Below are positions 8,535 through 57,301 of a stretch of 64,000 bases of DNA, one piece after another (positions within the stretch are counted from its first letter, which is position 1; every line of letters starts with the position of its first letter). The notes beneath the pieces were generated by a model, which worked only from the letters and a program-made list of their open reading frames with translations, was not told the DNA's origin and ran no database searches. The DNA lies in the NCBI GenBank assembly GCA_031265845.1, contig JAISCC010000016.1, positions 2,763 to 66,762 of the forward strand. Reading direction: 5' to 3'. The DNA comes from Treponema sp. (lineage in GTDB: Bacteria > Spirochaetota > Spirochaetia > Treponematales > Breznakiellaceae). Both the position numbers and the translations under genes were made by a program.

Positions 8535-8579
8535 GGTGTCAGACACCAAAACATTTTTGGCAAGTCGGCGTCTGACGCC
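8535..8579. repeat. Two tandem REP-like palindromes upstream of the RAYT gene
   Basis: AAGTCGGCGGTGTCAGACACCAAA (palindrome at 8535-8547), then AAGTCGGCGTCTGACGCCAAA (compensated palindrome GGCGTC-T-GACGCC at 8567-8579). Confidence 0.7.
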
Positions 8580-34718: not shown

Positions 34719-34934
34719 GGTGTCGGGGGGCAAGCCCCCCGACACGCGCTGAGCGCCGGCCCGGTGTCAGACATCGGGTCGCGGCGTATGTGTGCGGTGT
34801 CAGACATCGGCACGGCGCGGTGGGGAATGGCTCGCCCGCGCTGTGAAAGACACTGGCACGGCGCGGTGGTGTCAGACACACGACGGGCGGATACGGGGCG
34901 GCGAGCAGGGCGGTGGGCGGCGGTGTCAGACACC
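34719..34934. repeat. Cluster of five REP-like palindromes between P1 and P2
   Basis: GTGTCGGGGGGC-aa-GCCCCCCGACAC (34719-34744); GGTGTCAGACATC at 34763 and 34796; GGTGTCAGACACA at 34868; GGTGTCAGACACC at 34922. GGCACGGCGCGGTGG occurs twice. Confidence 0.75.
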
Positions 34935-37070: not shown

Positions 37071-37811
37071 ATGGCAGGATTGGAAGAACTGCGAAATGTG
37101 CTGCACGTCATCAGGGCGTGGCTGTATCCCAATTATCTGGAACACGGGGGCAAGTTCATCGCCCGCGCGAAAACCGAGAGGACCCTGAGCGTGGAGCAGG
37201 TCTGCGCCGAGGCCGTCACGCGGGGCGGCTCGGACCTGAACTACGACACCATGGTGGACGCGGTGAACGCCTACTTTGACGAGGCGTTCTATCAGCTTGC
37301 GGACGGGTTCAGCGTGGAGAATGGCTACTTCTCAATACACCCCAAGATAGGCGGCACCTTTGATCACGCGGACGACAAGGCGGACAAGGAGAGAAACCCC
37401 GTTGACTTCGCGTTCCGCAAGCGGCGGGAACTGCGGGACGTCATCTCTCGCATCACGGTGGAGATTGAGGGCGCGGCGGAGAGCGGGGCGTATATCGCCG
37501 AAGTGTTGGACGTGACCAGCGGTACATCGGACGAGCGGCTCACTGCGGGCGGCGTGGTTACGATACTGGGGAGCCGCGTCAAGATAGCCGGGGAAGACCC
37601 CTCCTGCGGACTCTACCTGGCGCAGGCGGACGGCTCGACCATCAAGGTGACGGGGAATCTGGTGGACAACCAGCGCAACCGCATATCCGCGCAGTTGCCG
37701 ACGCTGCCGCCCGGGGTCTACCGCGCGCGGATACTCACCCAGTTTTCCGGCGGGGGCGCGCTTTTAAAAGAGCCCCGTCGCATAGACTATGGCGTTGAGC
37801 TGACCGTCTAA
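37071..37811 (+). CDS. HU-like DNA-binding domain protein with C-terminal Ig-like DUF4469-type domain
   Basis: The N-terminal LSVEQVCAEAVTRGGSDLNYDTMVDAVNAYFDEAFYQLADGFSVENGYFSIHPKIGG resembles bacterial HU-CCDC81-type domains. C-terminal ...LPPGVYRARILTQFSGG... Called from memory of the family. Confidence 0.45.
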   Translation: MAGLEELRNVLHVIRAWLYPNYLEHGGKFIARAKTERTLSVEQVCAEAVTRGGSDLNYDTMVDAVNAYFDEAFYQLADGFSVENGYFSIHPKIGGTFDHADDKADKERNPVDFAFRKRRELRDVISRITVEIEGAAESGAYIAEVLDVTSGTSDERLTAGGVVTILGSRVKIAGEDPSCGLYLAQADGSTIKVTGNLVDNQRNRISAQLPTLPPGVYRARILTQFSGGGALLKEPRRIDYGVELTV

Positions 37812-38062: not shown

Positions 38063-38257
38063 TACGCCGCGACCCGCCCTAACCGTGCGCGGCGCGGCGT
38101 TGAGGCGCACTGCATGTCGCAAGAAACCCGCCTACGGCGGCGCCTTTGGCGGGGCGGCGGCACGGCGGTGTCAGACACCTTTCCCGTACGCCGCGACTCG
38201 CCCTAACCGTGCGCGGCGCGGCGTTGAGGCGCACTGCATGTCGCAAAAAAACCGCCT
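38063..38257. repeat. Two ~70-bp direct repeats, 124 bp apart, flanking a REP palindrome
   Basis: TACGCCGCGAC(C/T)CGCCCTAACCGTGCGCGGCGCGGCGTTGAGGCGCACTGCATGTCGCAA... at 38063 and 38187. GGTGTCAGACACC at 38167-38179. Confidence 0.75.
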
Positions 38258-42982: not shown

Positions 42983-42995
42983 GGTGTCAGACACC
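42983..42995. repeat. REP-like palindrome
   Basis: gcgcATGGTGTCAGACACC. Confidence 0.6.
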
Positions 42996-43017
42996 ATTGC
43001 GTTTACCAAAGAATAGG

Positions 43018-43087
43018 GTCCGCGAATTGCGCAAATGAACGCGAATGAAGACGAAAAAATATTCGCGGACATTCGCGTTCATTTGCG
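43018..43087. repeat. Interleaved inverted repeats (A-B-A'-B')
   Basis: A GTCCGCGAAT (43018-43027), B CGCAAATGAACGCGAATG (43030-43047), A' ATTCGCGGAC (43061-43070), B' CATTCGCGTTCATTTGCG (43070-43087). B/B' is a perfect 18-mer pair. Confidence 0.7.
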
Positions 43088-43132
43088 GACAAAAAAATAG
43101 CGAGTCCCTGCGCTTAGCGCAAAACCCCGCAT

Positions 43133-43145
43133 GGTGTCAGACACG
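43133..43145. repeat. REP-like palindrome (one mismatch)
   Basis: ccgcATGGTGTCAGACACG, with the same ATGG prefix as the copy at 42983. Confidence 0.55.
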
Positions 43146-43200: not shown

Positions 43201-43830
43201 TCATTCCCGCTCAATCTCCCAGCGTCCGCACATATACACCCGCTTGCCCCGGTCCTGTTCGCCGAATTGCAACACGCACGGGGAAGCCGTGTCAAACGCG
43301 GACAAGAACAATTCCTTTTCAATGTCCACCGGAAAATGATCGAGTATAGCCCAGCGGATTTCTATGCCGTGGACATGGAGCGGCTTCCCCCGCCCGCCGC
43401 TTTCGCTGTCGTGGCAATAGATCAGGATTTCTCGCGGGTTTTTCAGGCGGATGATCAGTGCTGGCACGGACTTCGGGCGGTTGCACCGGGCTTCTGCCTT
43501 CACTATACACCGGCAAACCCATGCGCTCCCTATCCTCGTCGGTAACGTTGGGGTTGTAAAGCAGATACGCCTTGCAATAGACCCGGACAGCCTTTTTCAG
43601 GGCGTTCCTGCTTTCATTTTTGTTCAAGACATCCACTTTTCCCCGGTTGGGGTTCTGGGCAGCCTCGAATTTCGCCTCGCAATCGGTCAAGAGCGCCTCC
43701 AGCGCGGACTGATGGCTGGGAACGAGCCAGCGGGCGAAATGGACAAGAGCGTAGACGTAGAGGACTTTGACAAATTTCAGAAACGCCCCGTCCTTGCGCG
43801 GAAGGTAATCAGTGTTATTAGCTATGCAAT
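43201..43830 (-). pseudogene. Conserved-hypothetical gene: no start, in-frame TAG upstream, one frameshift
   Basis: ...NNTDYLPRKDGAFLKFVKVLYVYALVHFARWLVPSHQSALEALLTDCEAKFEAAQNPNRGKVDVLNKNESRNALKKAVRVYCKAYLLYNPNVTDEDRERMGLPV... continues in another frame as ...KPLHVHGIEIRWAILDHFPVDIEKELFLSAFDTASPCVLQFGEQDRGKRVYMCGRWEIERE*. Confidence 0.4.
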
Positions 43831-43974: not shown

Positions 43975-45864
43975 TTAGGATGTTGATTCTACAATAGATA
44001 TTGCGGTATGGTTGCTGCCATACTTGCTGGTATTGCCCCCGGCGGCGGTTGTCGCCGTCACGCCCCATGCGCTGGTGTAGTCCGCCGCCTTTCCGGAAGG
44101 AACGGTAATGGTGATAGTAATGCTGCCACTATACGGCGTGGTATAAGAAAAAACGGAGCTTCCTATAGTTGGCGGCGTTGCTGGCAGGCTTATCGAAGTA
44201 AGTTTATCACAAAAGGCGAAGGCATAGCCGCCTATGGAAGTTGCCGCAGGCAGGCTTACGGTAGCAAGCTTATCACAGCTATAGAATGCGTCACTGCCTA
44301 TGGAAGTCGCCGCAGGCAGGCTTGCCGAAGCAAGGTTGTTATTGGAATAGAATGCATAGGAGCCTATGGAAGTTGCCGAAGACGCTGTTACCGAAGTAAT
44401 CTTTGTATTGTAGTAGAACGCATAGTCGCCTATAGCCGTCACTGAAAGCGTTATATCGCCGCTTGCGGAAGGATAGGCGATCAGTGTTGTCCCCGCCTTG
44501 TTCAGCAACATGCCGCCATTGGCGCTATATTGTGTATTCCCGCTGTCAACCGTTATGCTTGTTAAAGCCGTGCAACGGGCAAAAGAAGCGCCGCTGATTG
44601 TTGTTAGAGAGGCTGGAAGGCTTATTGAAGCAAGGCTCGTGCACCCACTGAACGCAAAGGAGCTTATGGAAGTCGCCGCTGGAAGGCTTATCGAAGCGAG
44701 GCTCGTGCACCCACTGAACGCAAAGGAGCTTATGGAAGTCGCCGCTGGAAGGCTTGCCGAAGCAAGGCTTGTGCAGTCCTCAAAGGCATAGCTTCCTATA
44801 GACGTTGCCGAAGGCAAGGTTACTGAAGCAATCTGTGTATTGTCGGCGAAGGCAAAGCTGTCTATAGCCGTAATATCTGAAAGAGTTATACTACCGCTTG
44901 CGGAAGGATAGGCGATCAATGTTGTCCCCGCCTTGTTCAGCAGCATACCGCCATTGGCGCTAAACTTTGTATTCCCGCTGTCAACCGTTATGCTTGTTAA
45001 AGCCGTGCAATCTCTAAAGGCATAACCGCCGATTGTCGTTAGAGAGGCGGGCAGGCTTATCGACGCGAGGCTTGTACAGCCGCTGAACGCAAGGGTGTTT
45101 ATGGAGGTTATCGAAGGCAGGCTTACCGAAGTAATGACAGTGTTGTTATAGAATATATAGCTGAGGCTTGCTATCTCAGTGATTCCCGTCCCGATTATTT
45201 CTTTAAGGTTGGTAAAAGCTTTGAATGAGGAAGCGGAATAAGTCCCCTCTTTTATGCTTTGCGCCCCATTCGGCAGTACCAAAGACACCACCTTAGCCGC
45301 GCCCGCGCCGGATCCCGGATCAAATTCCGCGCCGCTTATCGTACTCCCTGAAATATCGAGCGCAACGTACTTGCCGGTGCTGTTAATGGCGGAGAGAACT
45401 TCTGTCCAGCCAGCGCCTGCAAGATTGATGCCCAAGGCCACTGGAACCGGATTGTCGGCCGCGATCCCAGCCGAAGCGCTTGCTAAATACGATGTAAGAG
45501 CGCTAATAGAGTCAATCAGATTATCCAGTGGTCCTGCCACTACGGTAACGGTGAAGGTCGCTGTTTTGCCGTTTATCGTTACCGTGATCGTCTTCTCTCC
45601 CGCCGCGCTTGAGTCATAGCCTGAAATATTGGCGGAAGTGACGGTTTCCGCTTTGGTGGATCCGTCCGAATAGATTCCGGTTACCACAAGTCCGGTTACA
45701 TCAAGCGCTTCCCCTATCGCATACACGGTCTTCGTTGGCTGACTGCTTACCGTTAAATACACCAGGGAGGGACTTTCTTCCTCCGGCTCCTTGCAACTGG
45801 CAAGGATCACCGCTAAAAGCGTTAGAAACGCGAACAACGCGTTTTTACCATAGGTACATTTCAT
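43975..45864 (-). CDS. Surface lipoprotein: Ig-like domain + BspA/LrrA-type leucine-rich repeats
   Basis: Lipobox VILASC. Ig-like segment (YLTVSSQPTKTVYAIGEALDVTGLVVTGIYSDGS...TFTVTVV). Many ~22-aa LRR_5-type units (SLPAATSISSFAFSGCTSLASI). Confidence 0.8.
   Translation of the reverse strand: MKCTYGKNALFAFLTLLAVILASCKEPEEESPSLVYLTVSSQPTKTVYAIGEALDVTGLVVTGIYSDGSTKAETVTSANISGYDSSAAGEKTITVTINGKTATFTVTVVAGPLDNLIDSISALTSYLASASAGIAADNPVPVALGINLAGAGWTEVLSAINSTGKYVALDISGSTISGAEFDPGSGAGAAKVVSLVLPNGAQSIKEGTYSASSFKAFTNLKEIIGTGITEIASLSYIFYNNTVITSVSLPSITSINTLAFSGCTSLASISLPASLTTIGGYAFRDCTALTSITVDSGNTKFSANGGMLLNKAGTTLIAYPSASGSITLSDITAIDSFAFADNTQIASVTLPSATSIGSYAFEDCTSLASASLPAATSISSFAFSGCTSLASISLPAATSISSFAFSGCTSLASISLPASLTTISGASFARCTALTSITVDSGNTQYSANGGMLLNKAGTTLIAYPSASGDITLSVTAIGDYAFYYNTKITSVTASSATSIGSYAFYSNNNLASASLPAATSIGSDAFYSCDKLATVSLPAATSIGGYAFAFCDKLTSISLPATPPTIGSSVFSYTTPYSGSITITITVPSGKAADYTSAWGVTATTAAGGNTSKYGSNHTAISIVESTS
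44611..44808. repeat. Near-identical 66-bp (22-codon) tandem repeats inside the LRR gene
   Basis: GCTGGAAGGCTTAT... recurs at 44611, 44677 and 44743. Confidence 0.75.
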
Positions 45865-45950
45865 TCTTTAGCCTCCTCATTTCGCTTTGCATACGCATCC
45901 TTCAACACGCTAAACCAACGGTTTAGATATGCATGGTTGATAACGGCGCA

Positions 45951-45986
45951 TATATAAAAAGCCCGCGGCCATAAGGCCGCGGGCTT
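45951..45986 (-). terminator. Intrinsic terminator on the minus strand, about 90 nt upstream of the LRR start codon
   Basis: Minus strand reads AAGCCCGCGGCC-ttat-GGCCGCGGGCTT followed by TTTTATATAT. Confidence 0.6.
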
Positions 45987-46045
45987 CAAAGAATGAGGCG
46001 CGAAGAATTGAGGCGCAAAAAATCGCGCTGTCTGAATTGCGGCGG

Positions 46046-46138
46046 TTACAAAGCCGTCATGGGGGGGGGGGGGGAATTCTTCGCGCAGGAAAGCGCGTTC
46101 AACGGCTTGTTCTTATAAAAAGAGTTTAATGCATTCAC
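46046..46138 (-). other. Candidate 30-codon leader ORF containing the C14 tract
   Basis: AAGGAG (46151-46156), 12 nt, then GTG. Reads (M)NALNSFYKNKPLNALSCAKNSPPPPMTAL*. Too short for the ORF track; hypothetical. Confidence 0.3.
46061..46074. repeat. Homopolymer G14 (C14 on the minus strand)
   Basis: Counted directly: 46061-46074 are all G. Confidence 0.9.
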
Positions 46139-46213
46139 TTTTTATCAACACTCCTTTTTTGAAGTTTTAGACACGCGAAGCTGTTCCGCCATACGGATTC
46201 GCTTTTAAAAGAA

Positions 46214-46242
46214 AGTATATGCCTTTCATCTTATATTGTCAA
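46214..46242 (-). promoter_or_regulatory. Near-consensus sigma70-type promoter reading toward the leader ORF and LRR gene
   Basis: Minus strand: TTGACA, 17 nt (atataagatgaaaggca), TATACT. Confidence 0.45.
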
Positions 46243-46379
46243 TCGGTGAAAACTGGCGATACAAATTTAACCGATTGCGCTATTGGAAAACTTGTTATAG
46301 TATAGAGTGAAGGGAAGTTCTGTAAACTCCGGTTGAGTTTCTAGAGGTTTCCTTATATTATGAGCGAAGGACTGACGCC

Positions 46380-56155: not shown

Positions 56156-57301
56156 TCAAAGGCGGTTAAGAATAGTCCCCCCCCCCCCCCCGGACAAGGT
56201 GAAAGCAACGGTAAATTCATTTTGGGTTGCGGCAAATTTATCGGCGACTTTCTCAAATAAATCGATCAAATCCGGCGCAAAATGCGCTCCTTTTCCCGCT
56301 GTAATGAGTCTCACAGCCTTGTCATGGGTGAGGGCTTTTTTGTAAGGGCGTTTGGATGTAATGGCGTCATACACATCGGCAATGGCCAACAAACGTCCAA
56401 GAAGGGGGATGCTTTCTCCCGAAAGCCCTTGGGGGTAACCGGCGCCATCCCACCGCTCATGGTGAGTTCCGGCGAAAATCTTCGCATACTCAAGAAAATC
56501 ACAGGCTGAGGACTTCGCTTCAATCTTTTCAATAACCCCCACGCCGAGCGTAGTATGCCCCTTCATTATTTCGTACTCTTCTTCATTAAGCGCGTCTTTT
56601 TTTTGCAACACGCTGTCGCTGATGCCTATTTTGCCGATGTCGTGCAGTTGGGAAGAGAGGAGCAGCAGGTCGACATCCCACTTTTGAGTTACACTCTCAT
56701 ACAGTTTCCACTCTATCAAGCCGTCGACCAAAATCTTCAGGTACGCCTGCACCCGCTCATTATGGCCGCCAGTAACGTCGTCCCTACAGTCAACGATGTC
56801 AGCCATAGTTTTCAATACGGCGTTTTGCAGTTCAACCACCGTTTTTGTCTTTTCAGCGACCAGGTTTTGCAGGTTGCCGTTAAACTCCTGCAATTCTTTC
56901 CGTTGCTTTTCAAGAACCTCTTGCTGGGAATTCACCAGAATATGCACCTCAACGCGCTTGCGGAGGATGAACGGCGAGAACGGTTTTGAAATGTAATCAA
57001 TTGCGCCGAGGGTCAGTCCTTTCACTTCGTCTTCAATTTCGCTTTTTCCGGTCAGAAAGATCACCGGGATGTTCAGCGTACCGGGAGCCTTCTTCAACAA
57101 CGTGATGGCTTCATAGCCGTCCATATCGGGCATATCAATATCAAGCAGGATAAGAGCCGGTTTATTGCGTTCAAGCAACTCAAACATTTTTTTTGCTGAC
57201 GGTACGGTAAACACATTGTAAAGCGACATTAAAGCGTTCTTGCCGATCTTGAGATTTGCTATACTGTCATCAACAATCATAATGGTTTTTCTGTCGTCCA
57301 T
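56156..57301 (-). CDS. Response regulator, REC + HD-GYP domain (paralog of 4451-5611)
   Basis: IMIVDDS...LILLDIDMP; HDIGK; HHERWDGAGYPQGL. The C-terminal tail ...SGGGGGTILNRL* is encoded across the G15 tract. Confidence 0.85.
   Translation of the reverse strand: MDDRKTIMIVDDSIANLKIGKNALMSLYNVFTVPSAKKMFELLERNKPALILLDIDMPDMDGYEAITLLKKAPGTLNIPVIFLTGKSEIEDEVKGLTLGAIDYISKPFSPFILRKRVEVHILVNSQQEVLEKQRKELQEFNGNLQNLVAEKTKTVVELQNAVLKTMADIVDCRDDVTGGHNERVQAYLKILVDGLIEWKLYESVTQKWDVDLLLLSSQLHDIGKIGISDSVLQKKDALNEEEYEIMKGHTTLGVGVIEKIEAKSSACDFLEYAKIFAGTHHERWDGAGYPQGLSGESIPLLGRLLAIADVYDAITSKRPYKKALTHDKAVRLITAGKGAHFAPDLIDLFEKVADKFAATQNEFTVAFTLSGGGGGTILNRL
56177..56191. repeat. Homopolymer C15 (G15 on the minus strand)
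   Basis: Counted directly: 56177-56191 are all C. Confidence 0.9.

Follow-up and report, generated by a model that had tools for sequence, protein, structure and literature searches.

The stretch of DNA analysed here, 64,000 nucleotides from Treponema sp. (the window), carries on its minus strand a gene for a 629-aa BspA-type leucine-rich repeat (LRR) lipoprotein (43975–45864), with a signal peptide, a lipobox-like LASC motif, Pfam Big_3 and LRR_5 repeats and a lipoprotein-type N-terminus (MKCTYGKNALFAFLTLLAVILASC). We found 5632 relatives of this protein, the nearest ones with a source name being annotated "MAG: Treponema sp. leucine-rich repeat protein". An exact-protein look-up of the UxuA and LRR proteins of the window returned no identical entry on record, and in a genome scan anchored on UxuA the best relative among the matches listed was 72% identical, with L001 and L004 lacking LRR-gene synteny.

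Upstream of the lipoprotein gene, the first-pass annotation had described a promoter, a short upstream open reading frame (uORF), a run of 14 C, a terminator and the main ribosome-binding site and ATG, and each of these was found in place on the minus strand. The sigma-70-type promoter, TTGACA-17-TATACT (46214–46242), matches 11 of 12 consensus positions, with a transcription start site predicted near 46207–46206. A Shine-Dalgarno (SD) sequence, AAGGAG (46151–46156), precedes the GTG start of the uORF (46138) by 12 nt, a spacing that is above optimal and weighs against the explanation we favour below; TGA and TAA codons lie in frame directly upstream of this GTG. In the assembled frame the uORF (46046–46138) consists of 30 codons and a stop and encodes VNALNSFYKNKPLNALSCAKNSPPPPMTAL. 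It contains the C14 homopolymer (46061–46074; G14 on the plus strand), which is read TCC CCC CCC CCC CCC. The tract starts about 140 nt past the −10 box, inside the uORF, and promoter spacing is thus excluded as a model for the window, in agreement with the earlier claim that the mechanism is a different one. Only two G/C runs of at least 8 are found in the 64-kb window. The second long tract of the window (56177–56191) is not the same kind of device, since all three frames stop there within 3–9 codons.

Downstream of the tract lies an intrinsic terminator (predicted; 45956–45987), a G+C-rich hairpin (45987–45958) followed by UUUUUAUAUAU; the hairpin consists of 13 pairs (10 G-C) closed by a 4-nt loop, is followed by a T5 run, and has a folding energy of −29 kcal/mol. 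Adjoining its 5′ side is an 11-nt box, GCCTCATTCTT (45989–45999), that is complementary to the SD and start region of the main gene. In the predicted fold the tract is enclosed by a 12-bp stem, its 5′ arm GCGCGAAGAATT (46075–46086) pairing with a 3′ arm AATTCTTCGCGC (45998–46009) that belongs to an imperfect tandem duplication of the box; no locus other than the window has this stem, so any role it may play is uncertain. A small hairpin, CTAAACC-gtt-GGTTTAG (45910–45926), lies in the spacer that separates the terminator from the main SD; its counterpart in the related locus L081 is CTAAAAC-gtt-GTTTTAG, a compensatory double change. The main ribosome-binding region (45861–45878) comprises GAGGAGG (45878–45872), AAAGAATGA (45869–45861) and the ATG (45864–45862), which is overlapped by a TGA (45863–45861). 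It had been considered earlier that the lipoprotein gene might have a promoter of its own past the terminator; no promoter-like site was found between the terminator and the main ATG in the window. A search of Rfam 15 with the window leader gave only sub-threshold chance matches (Leu_leader, 18.5 bits against a cut-off of 50; anti-hemB, 16.6 against 49.5), and the leader of the related locus L083 had no match.

The length of the C tract sets the frame in which the uORF continues. Recomputing the frames bore out the earlier claim that tract lengths divisible by three leave the frame open to the TGA overlapping the LRR ATG, and that the third frame stops at once. With 12, 15 or 18 C the uORF encodes 91–93 aa and terminates at TGA 45863–45861, and with 13 or 16 C it stops immediately at a TGA. 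The long alternative frame comprises 66 codons from the tract onwards (45861–46061) and crosses the box, the terminator and the main SD. A chance expectation of 4–5% had been put on such an open frame, which is valid for a single frame named in advance and is overstated here: in dinucleotide-preserving shuffles of the window, 52% had one or more of the three frames open across the terminator, and in about 26% such a frame reached to 45 nt or less from the ATG. Taken by itself the window thus does not exceed chance, and at the level of sequence it is the comparative data that give the frame pattern its significance. No called protein resembling a long-frame product was found among 5.8 billion database proteins (clusters), which counts against the explanation we favour below; the sole match to the window long-frame product was a low-complexity repeat ORF, P0121.

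For this comparison we used the upstream regions of nine related BspA-type LRR lipoprotein genes from metagenomes (L081, L082, L083, L157, L158, L159, L161, L162 and L163). Six of them are full-length and bear a terminator (L083, L157, L158, L159, L162 and L163), L161 is without a terminator, and two further copies are truncated by contig ends; the window, the six full-length terminator-bearing relatives and L161 make up the eight scorable loci. Eight of the nine regions carry a C tract on the sense strand (lengths 11, 11, 12, 12, 12, 12, 13 and 13). Since these tracts of 11–13 C lie at the equivalent position in eight independent assemblies, the homopolymer is no assembly artefact, a concern raised in the first-pass annotation. 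Lengths of 11, 12, 13 and 14 are thus seen across loci that are homologous but not identical, and as they come from consensus assemblies this variation is suggestive only. The 25 nt preceding the tract are homologous between the window and L158, with an identical reading frame in both.

The surrounding elements are also shared. The box, the hairpin and a TTTTTATATATGCG block occur together in eight of the nine upstream regions (six full-length and two contig-truncated), and every one of the nine loci extending this far has kept the hairpin, with energies from −15 to −29 kcal/mol. The inner stems of the hairpin vary among loci with compensated changes, such as G-C to A-U in L157; double changes were found in 1 of 39 structural pairs, so that covariation is minimal. 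The homologous loci have promoters at the equivalent position (TTGCGY, TTGCAT or TTGAAA, a 17-nt spacer, then TATAAT or TATTAT), and seven of the nine regions combine the promoter with a uORF ATG exactly 7 nt past the −10 box, the uORF entering the tract in the CCC frame. The uORF starts differ, with an SD and GTG in the window and a putative leaderless ATG in the relatives, and both lead into the CCC frame; the putative nature of the leaderless start weighs against our favoured explanation. Three to four consecutive Pro codons are present in all eight scorable loci. The uORF peptide itself is poorly conserved, at 29–45 aa and with a hydrophobic middle part in some copies only. The cassette immediately precedes an LRR lipoprotein gene at no fewer than nine different chromosomal sites. 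Between the tract and the ATG the relatives are 91% identical among themselves, and they amount to perhaps three to five independent observations given this identity. The three diverged layouts (the window type, the main group and the terminator-less L161) share little beyond the tract, the box and the hairpin.

Wider searches added no copies. A scan with GGGCTTTTTATATATGCG of a metagenome collection without samples containing homologous cassettes gave 73 matches, mostly in unrelated conserved coding sequence and a few by chance, none of them with the box or a C tract. A viral-contig scan with the box pattern gave two chance matches, in DNA of 64–66% G+C, and comparing the leaders with all loci assembled for the analysis yielded no additional copies.

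Conservation of the read-through frame, suggested earlier as a check, was borne out, with long frames in all seven other scorable loci. Each full-length relative has one or two short frames that stop 0–4 codons past the tract (up to 8 codons in the terminator-less L161), and each locus has one or two long frames, which cross the terminator in the terminator-bearing loci. In silico, a one-base change of the tract moves the uORF between a short and a long frame in 8/8 loci, again across the terminator where there is one. In the seven terminator-bearing loci the frames are bimodal: nine stop at most 4 codons after the tract, twelve pass the T-run, and none stops between 5 codons past the tract and the T-run. 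In shuffles this pattern had a P of 0.02–0.04 for the five loci having two long frames. A long frame ends at an ATGA overlap in six of the eight loci (the window, L157, L159, L161, L162 and L163); some long frames, in L158 and L162, end 19–42 nt short of the ATG, so strict stop-start coupling is not universal.

At its assembled length the tract leads the uORF into a short frame in each of the eight scorable loci, despite differing tract lengths (11–14) and differing offsets before the tract, and the short-frame stop is reached by three solutions (GCAGCT-TAA; CCG-TAG in L157; CGT-TAG in L162). Under random phase the chance of eight short frames in eight is about 0.001, or about 0.01 allowing for related copies; the pattern is also in keeping with plain selection for a fixed short uORF. 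The stop of the short frame precedes the hairpin by 36–42 nt in the relatives and by 59 nt in the window. In E. coli an intrinsic terminator is fully active when the stop codon lies more than about 27–30 nt upstream, and less than 10% active at 5 nt (PMC4824070). The spacers of 36–59 nt exceed this limit, and the geometry fits these measurements. The codons of the tract are informative as well: CCC accounts for just 29% of the Pro codons of window genes, and if Pro-Pro-Pro-Pro alone were selected an all-CCC tract would have a P of about 0.007 per locus, which argues that the homopolymer itself is under selection.

The box had gone unremarked in the first-pass annotation. Of the seven relatives whose sequence extends to the box, five (L082, L083, L158, L159 and L163) have it unchanged, L157 has one substitution and L162 two. 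The predicted duplex between the box and the main SD has an energy of −15.4 kcal/mol in the window (P 0.04), about −16 kcal/mol in six of the seven relatives (P ≤ 0.001) and −10.2 kcal/mol in L162 (P 0.05). Minimum-energy folds pair the box with the SD or AUG region in 7/7 leaders, as does the RNAalifold consensus. All seven terminator-bearing loci read the box as CCT CAT TCT (P-H-S) in a long frame. Because a conserved anti-SD box stands beside the hairpin, translational unmasking with coupling is at least as likely a readout as pure anti-termination. A separate candidate antiterminator helix would join the post-tract CCGCAGCTT to the 5′ arm of the hairpin. In L082, L083, L157 and L158 this is the highest-ranking upstream pairing, and L157 shows a three-way coordinated change. 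It is weak (−8 to −10 kcal/mol, versus −13 to −28 kcal/mol for the terminator), is not kept in the window, L159 or L163, and appears in L162 in the nascent fold only and not as the best partner; we did not adopt it.

What the analysis shows is how the leader is built, how far it is conserved, how its frames depend on tract length and which structures are predicted for it; from these we infer translation of the uORF, termination at the hairpin, instability of the tract and an effect on expression. The explanation we favour, with about even confidence, is a frame-switch attenuator with translational coupling, in which tract length would most likely be changed by slipped-strand events. The 380 nt ahead of the lipoprotein gene would form a single regulatory leader with one promoter, whose RNA encodes the uORF first, and tract length would set the frame in which ribosomes exit the C tract. 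With C14, in the short frame, ribosomes would stop 59 nt ahead of the terminator, the hairpin would form and most transcripts would end there; in any RNA that reads through, the box would pair with the main ribosome-binding region and hide it, leaving the gene off. With C15 or C12, ribosomes would translate the box and the hairpin, blocking the terminator by pyrBI-type coupling and opening the box-SD helix, and the ribosome released at the TGA overlapping the ATG could restart on the lipoprotein gene, which would be on. The most likely driver would be heritable slipped-strand change, amounting to phase variation of a surface LRR lipoprotein family in which most cells would keep the majority of copies off; slippage on the C run, transcriptional or ribosomal, could add a low, non-heritable on-fraction. 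Because the layout is common to eight related loci, a one-base change in the C run probably toggles the LRR gene, by a previously undescribed route. It counts against this mechanism that ribosomes are slowed by poly-proline, which could undo the tight coupling that anti-termination requires (PMC5021804).

The uniform short frame could also mean that the switch is not heritable. Selection would then have fixed the tract length, and the short Pro-Pro-Pro-Pro uORF would be a sensor of EF-P, prolyl-tRNA or tRNA-Pro modification, or would set the fraction of ribosomes or RNA polymerases that slip into the long frame, giving a low, tuned amount of read-through. We consider this unlikely, although several findings fit it: all eight loci are short, and the matching stops in L157 and L162 were made by point substitutions, as in selection for a stable frame; a +1 ribosomal shift out of the assembled frame reaches a long frame in seven of the eight loci and a −1 shift in six; PPPPPP upstream of the pyrL terminator causes EF-P-dependent read-through in E. 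coli (PMC5021804); and the proline codons of mgtP control mgtCBR (PMC12360218). However, a poly-proline sensor alone has no need of the all-CCC codons described above, and C11–14 runs are expected to be mutationally unstable, so that their retention speaks for a use of this instability. Even when stalled on the tract, a ribosome would be at least 36 nt from the hairpin, so stalling alone would not obviously alter termination, and no conserved antiterminator helix was found in the leaders. Another reading, which we regard as improbable, takes the promoter, uORF and terminator as a small gene in their own right, whose product would be either a C-rich small RNA or a small protein, with the lipoprotein gene served by its own unrecognised promoter past the hairpin and the tract no switch in cis. 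The discrete RNA of about 250 nt predicted from promoter to terminator (161–208 nt from the uORF start across loci) is in keeping with it, and the action of the small RNA RepG on the tlpB G-repeat of H. pylori is a precedent for interplay between homopolymers and small RNAs (PMC8295292). Against it stand the position of the cassette directly upstream of an LRR lipoprotein gene at so many sites, the complementarity of the hairpin-adjoining box to the SD of that gene, the poor conservation of the uORF peptide, and the failure to find a promoter-like site past the hairpin in the window or a matching Rfam family.

The tract might instead alter the geometry of a second promoter just downstream, giving phase variation of the promoter type known from T. 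pallidum tpr and tp0126 and from Bordetella fim. Six relatives do have a TATACT 14 nt past the tract, within TTAATTATATATACT, L162 has GATACT at a similar distance, and L161 has TACTAT 13 nt past the tract. Yet the −35 position would fall within the C run, transcripts would meet the terminator about 25 nt from their start, and the tract sits inside a conserved uORF whose frame is maintained. A second promoter is rejected in the window, which has no −10-like hexamer after the tract, and is unlikely in the relatives given the position of the −35 and the terminator that follows; overall we give this reading little credence. Least probable of all, and in our view a slim chance, is a functionless pattern, in which a conserved 5′ UTR carries a terminator-like stabilising hairpin and the C tract and open frames are accidents of shared ancestry. 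The window alone lies within chance and the relatives are closely related to each other, as such a reading would have it, but equivalent logic recurs in three diverged layouts, the short frame is kept across different tract lengths and stop codons, and the complementarity of box and SD is significant.

The proposed frame-switch attenuator has partial parallels in known systems. As in pyrBI (pyrL) of E. coli, a leader ORF runs through an intrinsic terminator where a close ribosome could block the hairpin, here in alternative tract phases only (one frame in the window, one or two in the relatives). The signal in pyrBI is UTP-sensitive RNA polymerase pausing with a fixed leader frame, whereas here it would be the frame set by a homopolymer, and the leader adds a predicted box-SD helix and a stop-start overlap that pyrBI does not have. 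Phase variation of C. difficile cwpV acts through leader termination and invertible DNA. Leader termination likewise underlies phase variation of E. coli fim and C. difficile flgB, through invertible DNA and Rho (PMC12360218). In all three a heritable DNA switch past the promoter decides on termination before the structural gene, as proposed here, but they are site-specific inversions that need a recombinase, in contrast to a slipped-strand length change read by the ribosome. The leader ORF here resembles mgtP (mgtCBR) and the PPPPPP-pyrL reporter in having successive Pro codons ahead of a termination signal (PMC5021804, PMC12360218); those systems sense translation speed with mixed Pro codons and defined alternative stem-loops, unlike the pure C run here, for which no conserved antiterminator was found.

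Among homopolymer switches, a G/C run of at least 8 upstream of a surface-protein gene is a feature in common with T. pallidum tprE/G/J/L and tp0126 (poly-G) and with N. meningitidis porA and opc, and in T. pallidum G tracts of at least 8 vary in length within isolates (PMC7864442). In those genes the tract is part of the untranscribed promoter, either between −35 and −10 or at the −10 box or the start site, whereas the present one is predicted to be transcribed, inside a uORF. The variable G-repeat of H. pylori tlpB is similarly placed in the transcribed 5′ leader rather than in the promoter or main ORF (PMC8295292), but is read out by pairing with the trans-acting small RNA RepG; for the present tract, which lies in a putatively translated uORF, a partner of that kind is not known. 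BspA-like LRR families of Ca. Mycoplasma girerdii are phase-variable via simple repeats, with the consensus often off and minority variants on (PMC5476646). Both cases involve a multigene family of BspA-type LRR surface proteins with simple repeats; in Ca. M. girerdii these are dinucleotides in the structural ORF that truncate the protein, and here the repeat is in a regulatory uORF and the structural ORF is intact. As in contingency loci, a homopolymer of at least 8 (C14 in the window, C11–C13 in the relatives) is found together with a surface-type lipoprotein family downstream. We tentatively propose, at somewhat less than even confidence, that these leaders represent an undescribed class of contingency locus in gut treponemes, in which the exit frame of the uORF C tract would decide between a stop before the terminator and read-through with anti-SD opening and ATGA overlap, switching each BspA-type LRR gene heritably on or off with its protein intact.

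To our knowledge, simple repeats are currently credited with phase variation at two kinds of site: in promoters they change spacing, and in coding regions they truncate the protein. If our reading is true, repeats would act at a third site as well, a regulatory uORF working through an intrinsic terminator and translational coupling. Long intergenic G/C runs are usually ignored or taken as assembly noise, and some of them may be switches of this uORF-frame type. Engineered E. coli experiments show that the physical principle works: at tR2, a single inserted G shifts the stop from 28 to 5 nt before the hairpin and lowers termination from about 90% to less than 10% (PMC4824070). If the reading holds in these organisms, gut treponemes, which are little studied, would vary individual copies of their LRR surface lipoproteins in the manner of pathogens.

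All elements that the first-pass annotation had listed at the leader of the LRR lipoprotein gene were found on the minus strand of the window. A promoter matching the consensus at 11 of 12 positions (TTGACA-17-TATACT, 46242-46214) is followed by AAGGAG (46156-46151) and a GTG-initiated small upstream ORF (uORF; 46138-46046), inside which a run of 14 C (46074-46061) is read as S-P-P-P-P, with the stop four codons on. Downstream lie a terminator, made up of a 13-bp G+C-rich hairpin and a T run (45987-45956, -29 kcal/mol), and then GAGGAGG and the main ATG at 45864, which opens a 629-aa protein with a lipoprotein-type signal, a Big_3 domain and BspA-type LRR_5 repeats. No promoter was recognizable between the hairpin and the main ATG in the window, the sole recognizable one being upstream of the uORF, and the terminator is thus an attenuator by position. 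Two further promoter-like sites lie in the 515-bp divergent intergenic region: a second one on the minus strand, upstream of the leader promoter (TTTACA-16-TATACT, 46326-46299), and one on the plus strand (TTGAGT-17-TATTAT, 46333-46361), presumably for uxuA (start 46380).

The frame arithmetic of the annotation was reproduced in silico: 12, 15 or 18 C give an ORF of 91-93 codons whose TGA overlaps the main ATG, and 13 or 16 C an immediate stop. The 4-5% chance expectation attached to this open frame, however, is valid only for a single frame named beforehand. In dinucleotide-preserving shuffles of the window stretch from tract to ATG, one or more of the three frames ran past the terminator in 52% of cases, and in 26% one or more came to 45 nt or less from the ATG. 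Taken alone, the long frame of the window is unremarkable.

We therefore turn to related leaders. A genome scan anchored on the divergent neighbor UxuA gave, among the matches listed, a closest match of 72% identity and no synteny. The LRR protein itself has thousands of relatives, the nearest with a source name being “MAG: Treponema sp.”. Examination of the contigs of ten relatives yielded nine upstream regions homologous to the window leader or alike in logic; a search of Rfam gave no family match for the leaders. The main group consists of six full-length copies (loci L083, L157, L158, L159, L162 and L163). Their promoters combine a TTGCGY or TTGCAT -35 box, a 17-nt spacer and TATAAT, and exactly 7 nt separate TATAAT from ATGAAYACAAACGTA, a leaderless uORF that starts MNTNV and enters tracts of 11, 11, 12, 12, 12 and 13 C. 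After the tract come a conserved box complementary to the main SD/start region (CGCCTCATTCTT), a hairpin, TTTTTATATATGCG, a second hairpin, and finally GAAGAATGAAGGAG with the main ATG. L082 is of this type, its contig beginning 48 nt before a C12 tract, and L081, truncated at the hairpin by the contig start, shares 91% identity with the window from hairpin to ATG. Both contigs break inside the cassette, as would be expected if the cassette were multi-copy or the tract heterogeneous in those samples. L161 has a third layout (TTGAAA-17-TATTAT, 7 nt, then a leaderless uORF starting MKLNV through C13), without a terminator and with the tract 62 nt before the main ATG. Since the neighboring genes differ between loci, the cassette accompanies LRR genes in many chromosomal settings, a distribution that shows the tract to be real and conserved.

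Several other repeats and neighbors were observed. G/C runs of at least 8 number two in the whole 64 kb window. The second, a plus-strand C15 at 56177-56191, is G15 in the sense of a minus-strand response-regulator/HD-GYP gene (56156-57301; Pfam Response_reg, HD_5), 7 codons before its stop. All three frames there end in 3-9 codons, so that a change in length exchanges only the short tail at the C-terminus. Three hairpins lie beyond this run, as does the start of a gene for a sugar-binding lipoprotein. A dispersed motif, GTCTGACACC, occurs 21 times in the window with one mismatch allowed (1.8 expected), clustered in intergenic DNA (8535-8579, 34763-34934, 36815, 38167-38179, 42983-43142), and also upstream of the cassette in L158 and L163; as CTGACACC it is frequent upstream of homologous LRR cassettes, and so would seem to be a REP-like repeat particular to the lineage. 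A 23-nt tandem unit, TATGCGTGAGAGACACTCTCACC, itself an inverted repeat, immediately precedes the cassette promoter in L162 (2019-2193; 7.6 copies, 97% match) and L157 (~835-1035) and is absent from the window. Just 3' of the window LRR gene, two overlapping minus-strand ORFs of 123 and 100 aa (43201-43690), neither with a Pfam match, have the appearance of a single gene broken by a frameshift. An HU-DNA_bdg/DUF4469 gene stands immediately after the LRR gene in five relatives (L082 3452-4318, L083 5646-6353, L158 5368-6108, L159 3742-4482, L162 4250-4957); its window homologue (37071-37811, plus strand; 28-35% identity by tblastn) lies ~6 kb from the LRR gene.

Frames were scored at the eight loci whose uORF is complete, with long-frame ends given relative to the main ATG (+4 being the TGA of the ATGA overlap). 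At all eight, the assembled tract length sets the short frame, in which the uORF stops soon after the tract. The window (14 C) has a short uORF of 30 aa and a long frame ending at +4 with 15 C. The corresponding values are 12 C, 45 aa, -30 and -4 in L083; 13 C, 30 aa and +4 in L157; 12 C, 31 aa, -19 and -41 in L158; 11 C, 41 aa, -4 and +4 in both L159 and L163; 12 C, 29 aa, +4 and -42 in L162; and 13 C, 43 aa and +4 in L161. The read-through frame first noted in the window is hence conserved, with one or more long frames in all seven relatives scored. The short frame is reached by different routes, tract length and preceding offset varying between loci, and ends at three different stops (GCAGCT-TAA; CCG-TAG in L157; CGT-TAG in L162). 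Eight short frames in eight has P ~0.001 under random phase, or ~0.01 with near-identical cassettes counted once. Of the 21 frames at the seven terminator-bearing loci, 9 end at most 4 codons past the tract, 12 clear the T run and none ends between; for the five loci with two long frames, the pattern of one frame ending within 4 codons and the other two crossing the terminator had a shuffle P of 0.02-0.04. In all seven, a long frame reads the box as CCT CAT TCT. Apart from this, the uORF peptide shows little conservation, its hydrophobic middle part being confined to some copies, and it is the frame, not the peptide, that seems to matter. CCC makes up 29% of Pro codons in window genes, giving an all-CCC Pro run P ~0.007 per locus, which points to selection for the homopolymer itself.

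Predicted RNA folds retain the hairpin at all nine loci that reach it (-15 to -29 kcal/mol), with inner stems that differ between loci through compensated changes. The box-SD duplex is ~-16 kcal/mol in six of seven box-reaching relatives (P ≤ 0.001 versus shuffled boxes) and weaker in L162 (-10.2 kcal/mol). In the window it amounts to -15.4 kcal/mol (P 0.04), with TCATTCTTT (45996-45988) able to pair with AAAGAATGA (45869-45861), start codon included. In each of the seven full leaders, the minimum-energy fold has the box paired with the SD or AUG region, and RNAalifold returned a three-way junction of box-SD helix, terminator and third hairpin; covariation is nearly absent because the group is 91% identical. 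A window spacer hairpin (45926-45910) carries a compensatory double change in L081. A candidate antiterminator helix, pairing the post-tract segment with the 5' arm of the hairpin, was not conserved across loci. The box is duplicated once in the window (46013-45989). The translation of 45864-46061 (minus strand) had a sole match, P0121 (149 aa), a low-complexity predicted protein with FAPHxLRP-like repeats of the kind expected from translating tandem copies of box-like DNA (TTCGCGCCTCATTCTT), so that elsewhere the box may form a longer tandem array.

In the long state, a ribosome would traverse box and hairpin, blocking termination and opening the box-SD helix, and would stop at or beside the main ATG, favoring re-initiation. 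Slipped-strand change of the C11-C14 run would be the most economical way of setting the frame. The E. coli terminator tR2 is fully active with a stop codon more than ~27-30 nt upstream and almost inactive at 5 nt, and one inserted G that moves the stop flips it between both states, translation being required (PMC4824070). The same principle operates in pyrBI attenuation. G runs of at least 8 vary in length within T. pallidum isolates (PMC7864442), and BspA-like families of Ca. Mycoplasma girerdii are repeat-controlled, with the consensus off (PMC5476646). For the present leaders, we infer uORF translation, termination, tract instability and an effect on expression.

Alternatively, the tract may be fixed and serve as a poly-proline/EF-P sensor, or as a place where ribosomes or RNA polymerase slip, with precedents in mgtP and a PPPPPP-pyrL reporter (PMC5021804, PMC12360218). 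The uniform short state fits such a role, but this reading explains neither the pure C run nor by what means a stall 36 nt or more away from the hairpin could take effect, and we regard it as rather unlikely. That the leader is an independent small RNA or small-protein gene is improbable: it is invariably linked to an LRR gene, its box is complementary to the SD, and no promoter was recognized downstream. Still less probable is a promoter-type switch driven by the C tract, which the tract position excludes for the window. Chance is an unlikely source of the frame pattern, as three diverged layouts share the same logic.

The component parts of the proposed switch are already known: homopolymer contingency loci, leader-ORF attenuation, translational coupling and anti-SD helices. 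To our knowledge, invertible DNA is the only known form of heritable switch acting through leader termination, as in C. difficile cwpV. Such switches also include E. coli fim and C. difficile flgB (PMC12360218). Full-text literature searches gave no report of a repeat in a regulatory uORF deciding ribosome passage across a terminator. Comparative sequence evidence partly supports, and extends, the phase switch that the annotation had proposed. We see about an even chance that the tract-set uORF frame controls the lipoprotein gene, via the terminator, the anti-SD helix or both, and are much more confident that the leader represents a conserved cis-regulatory cassette of this LRR lipoprotein family.
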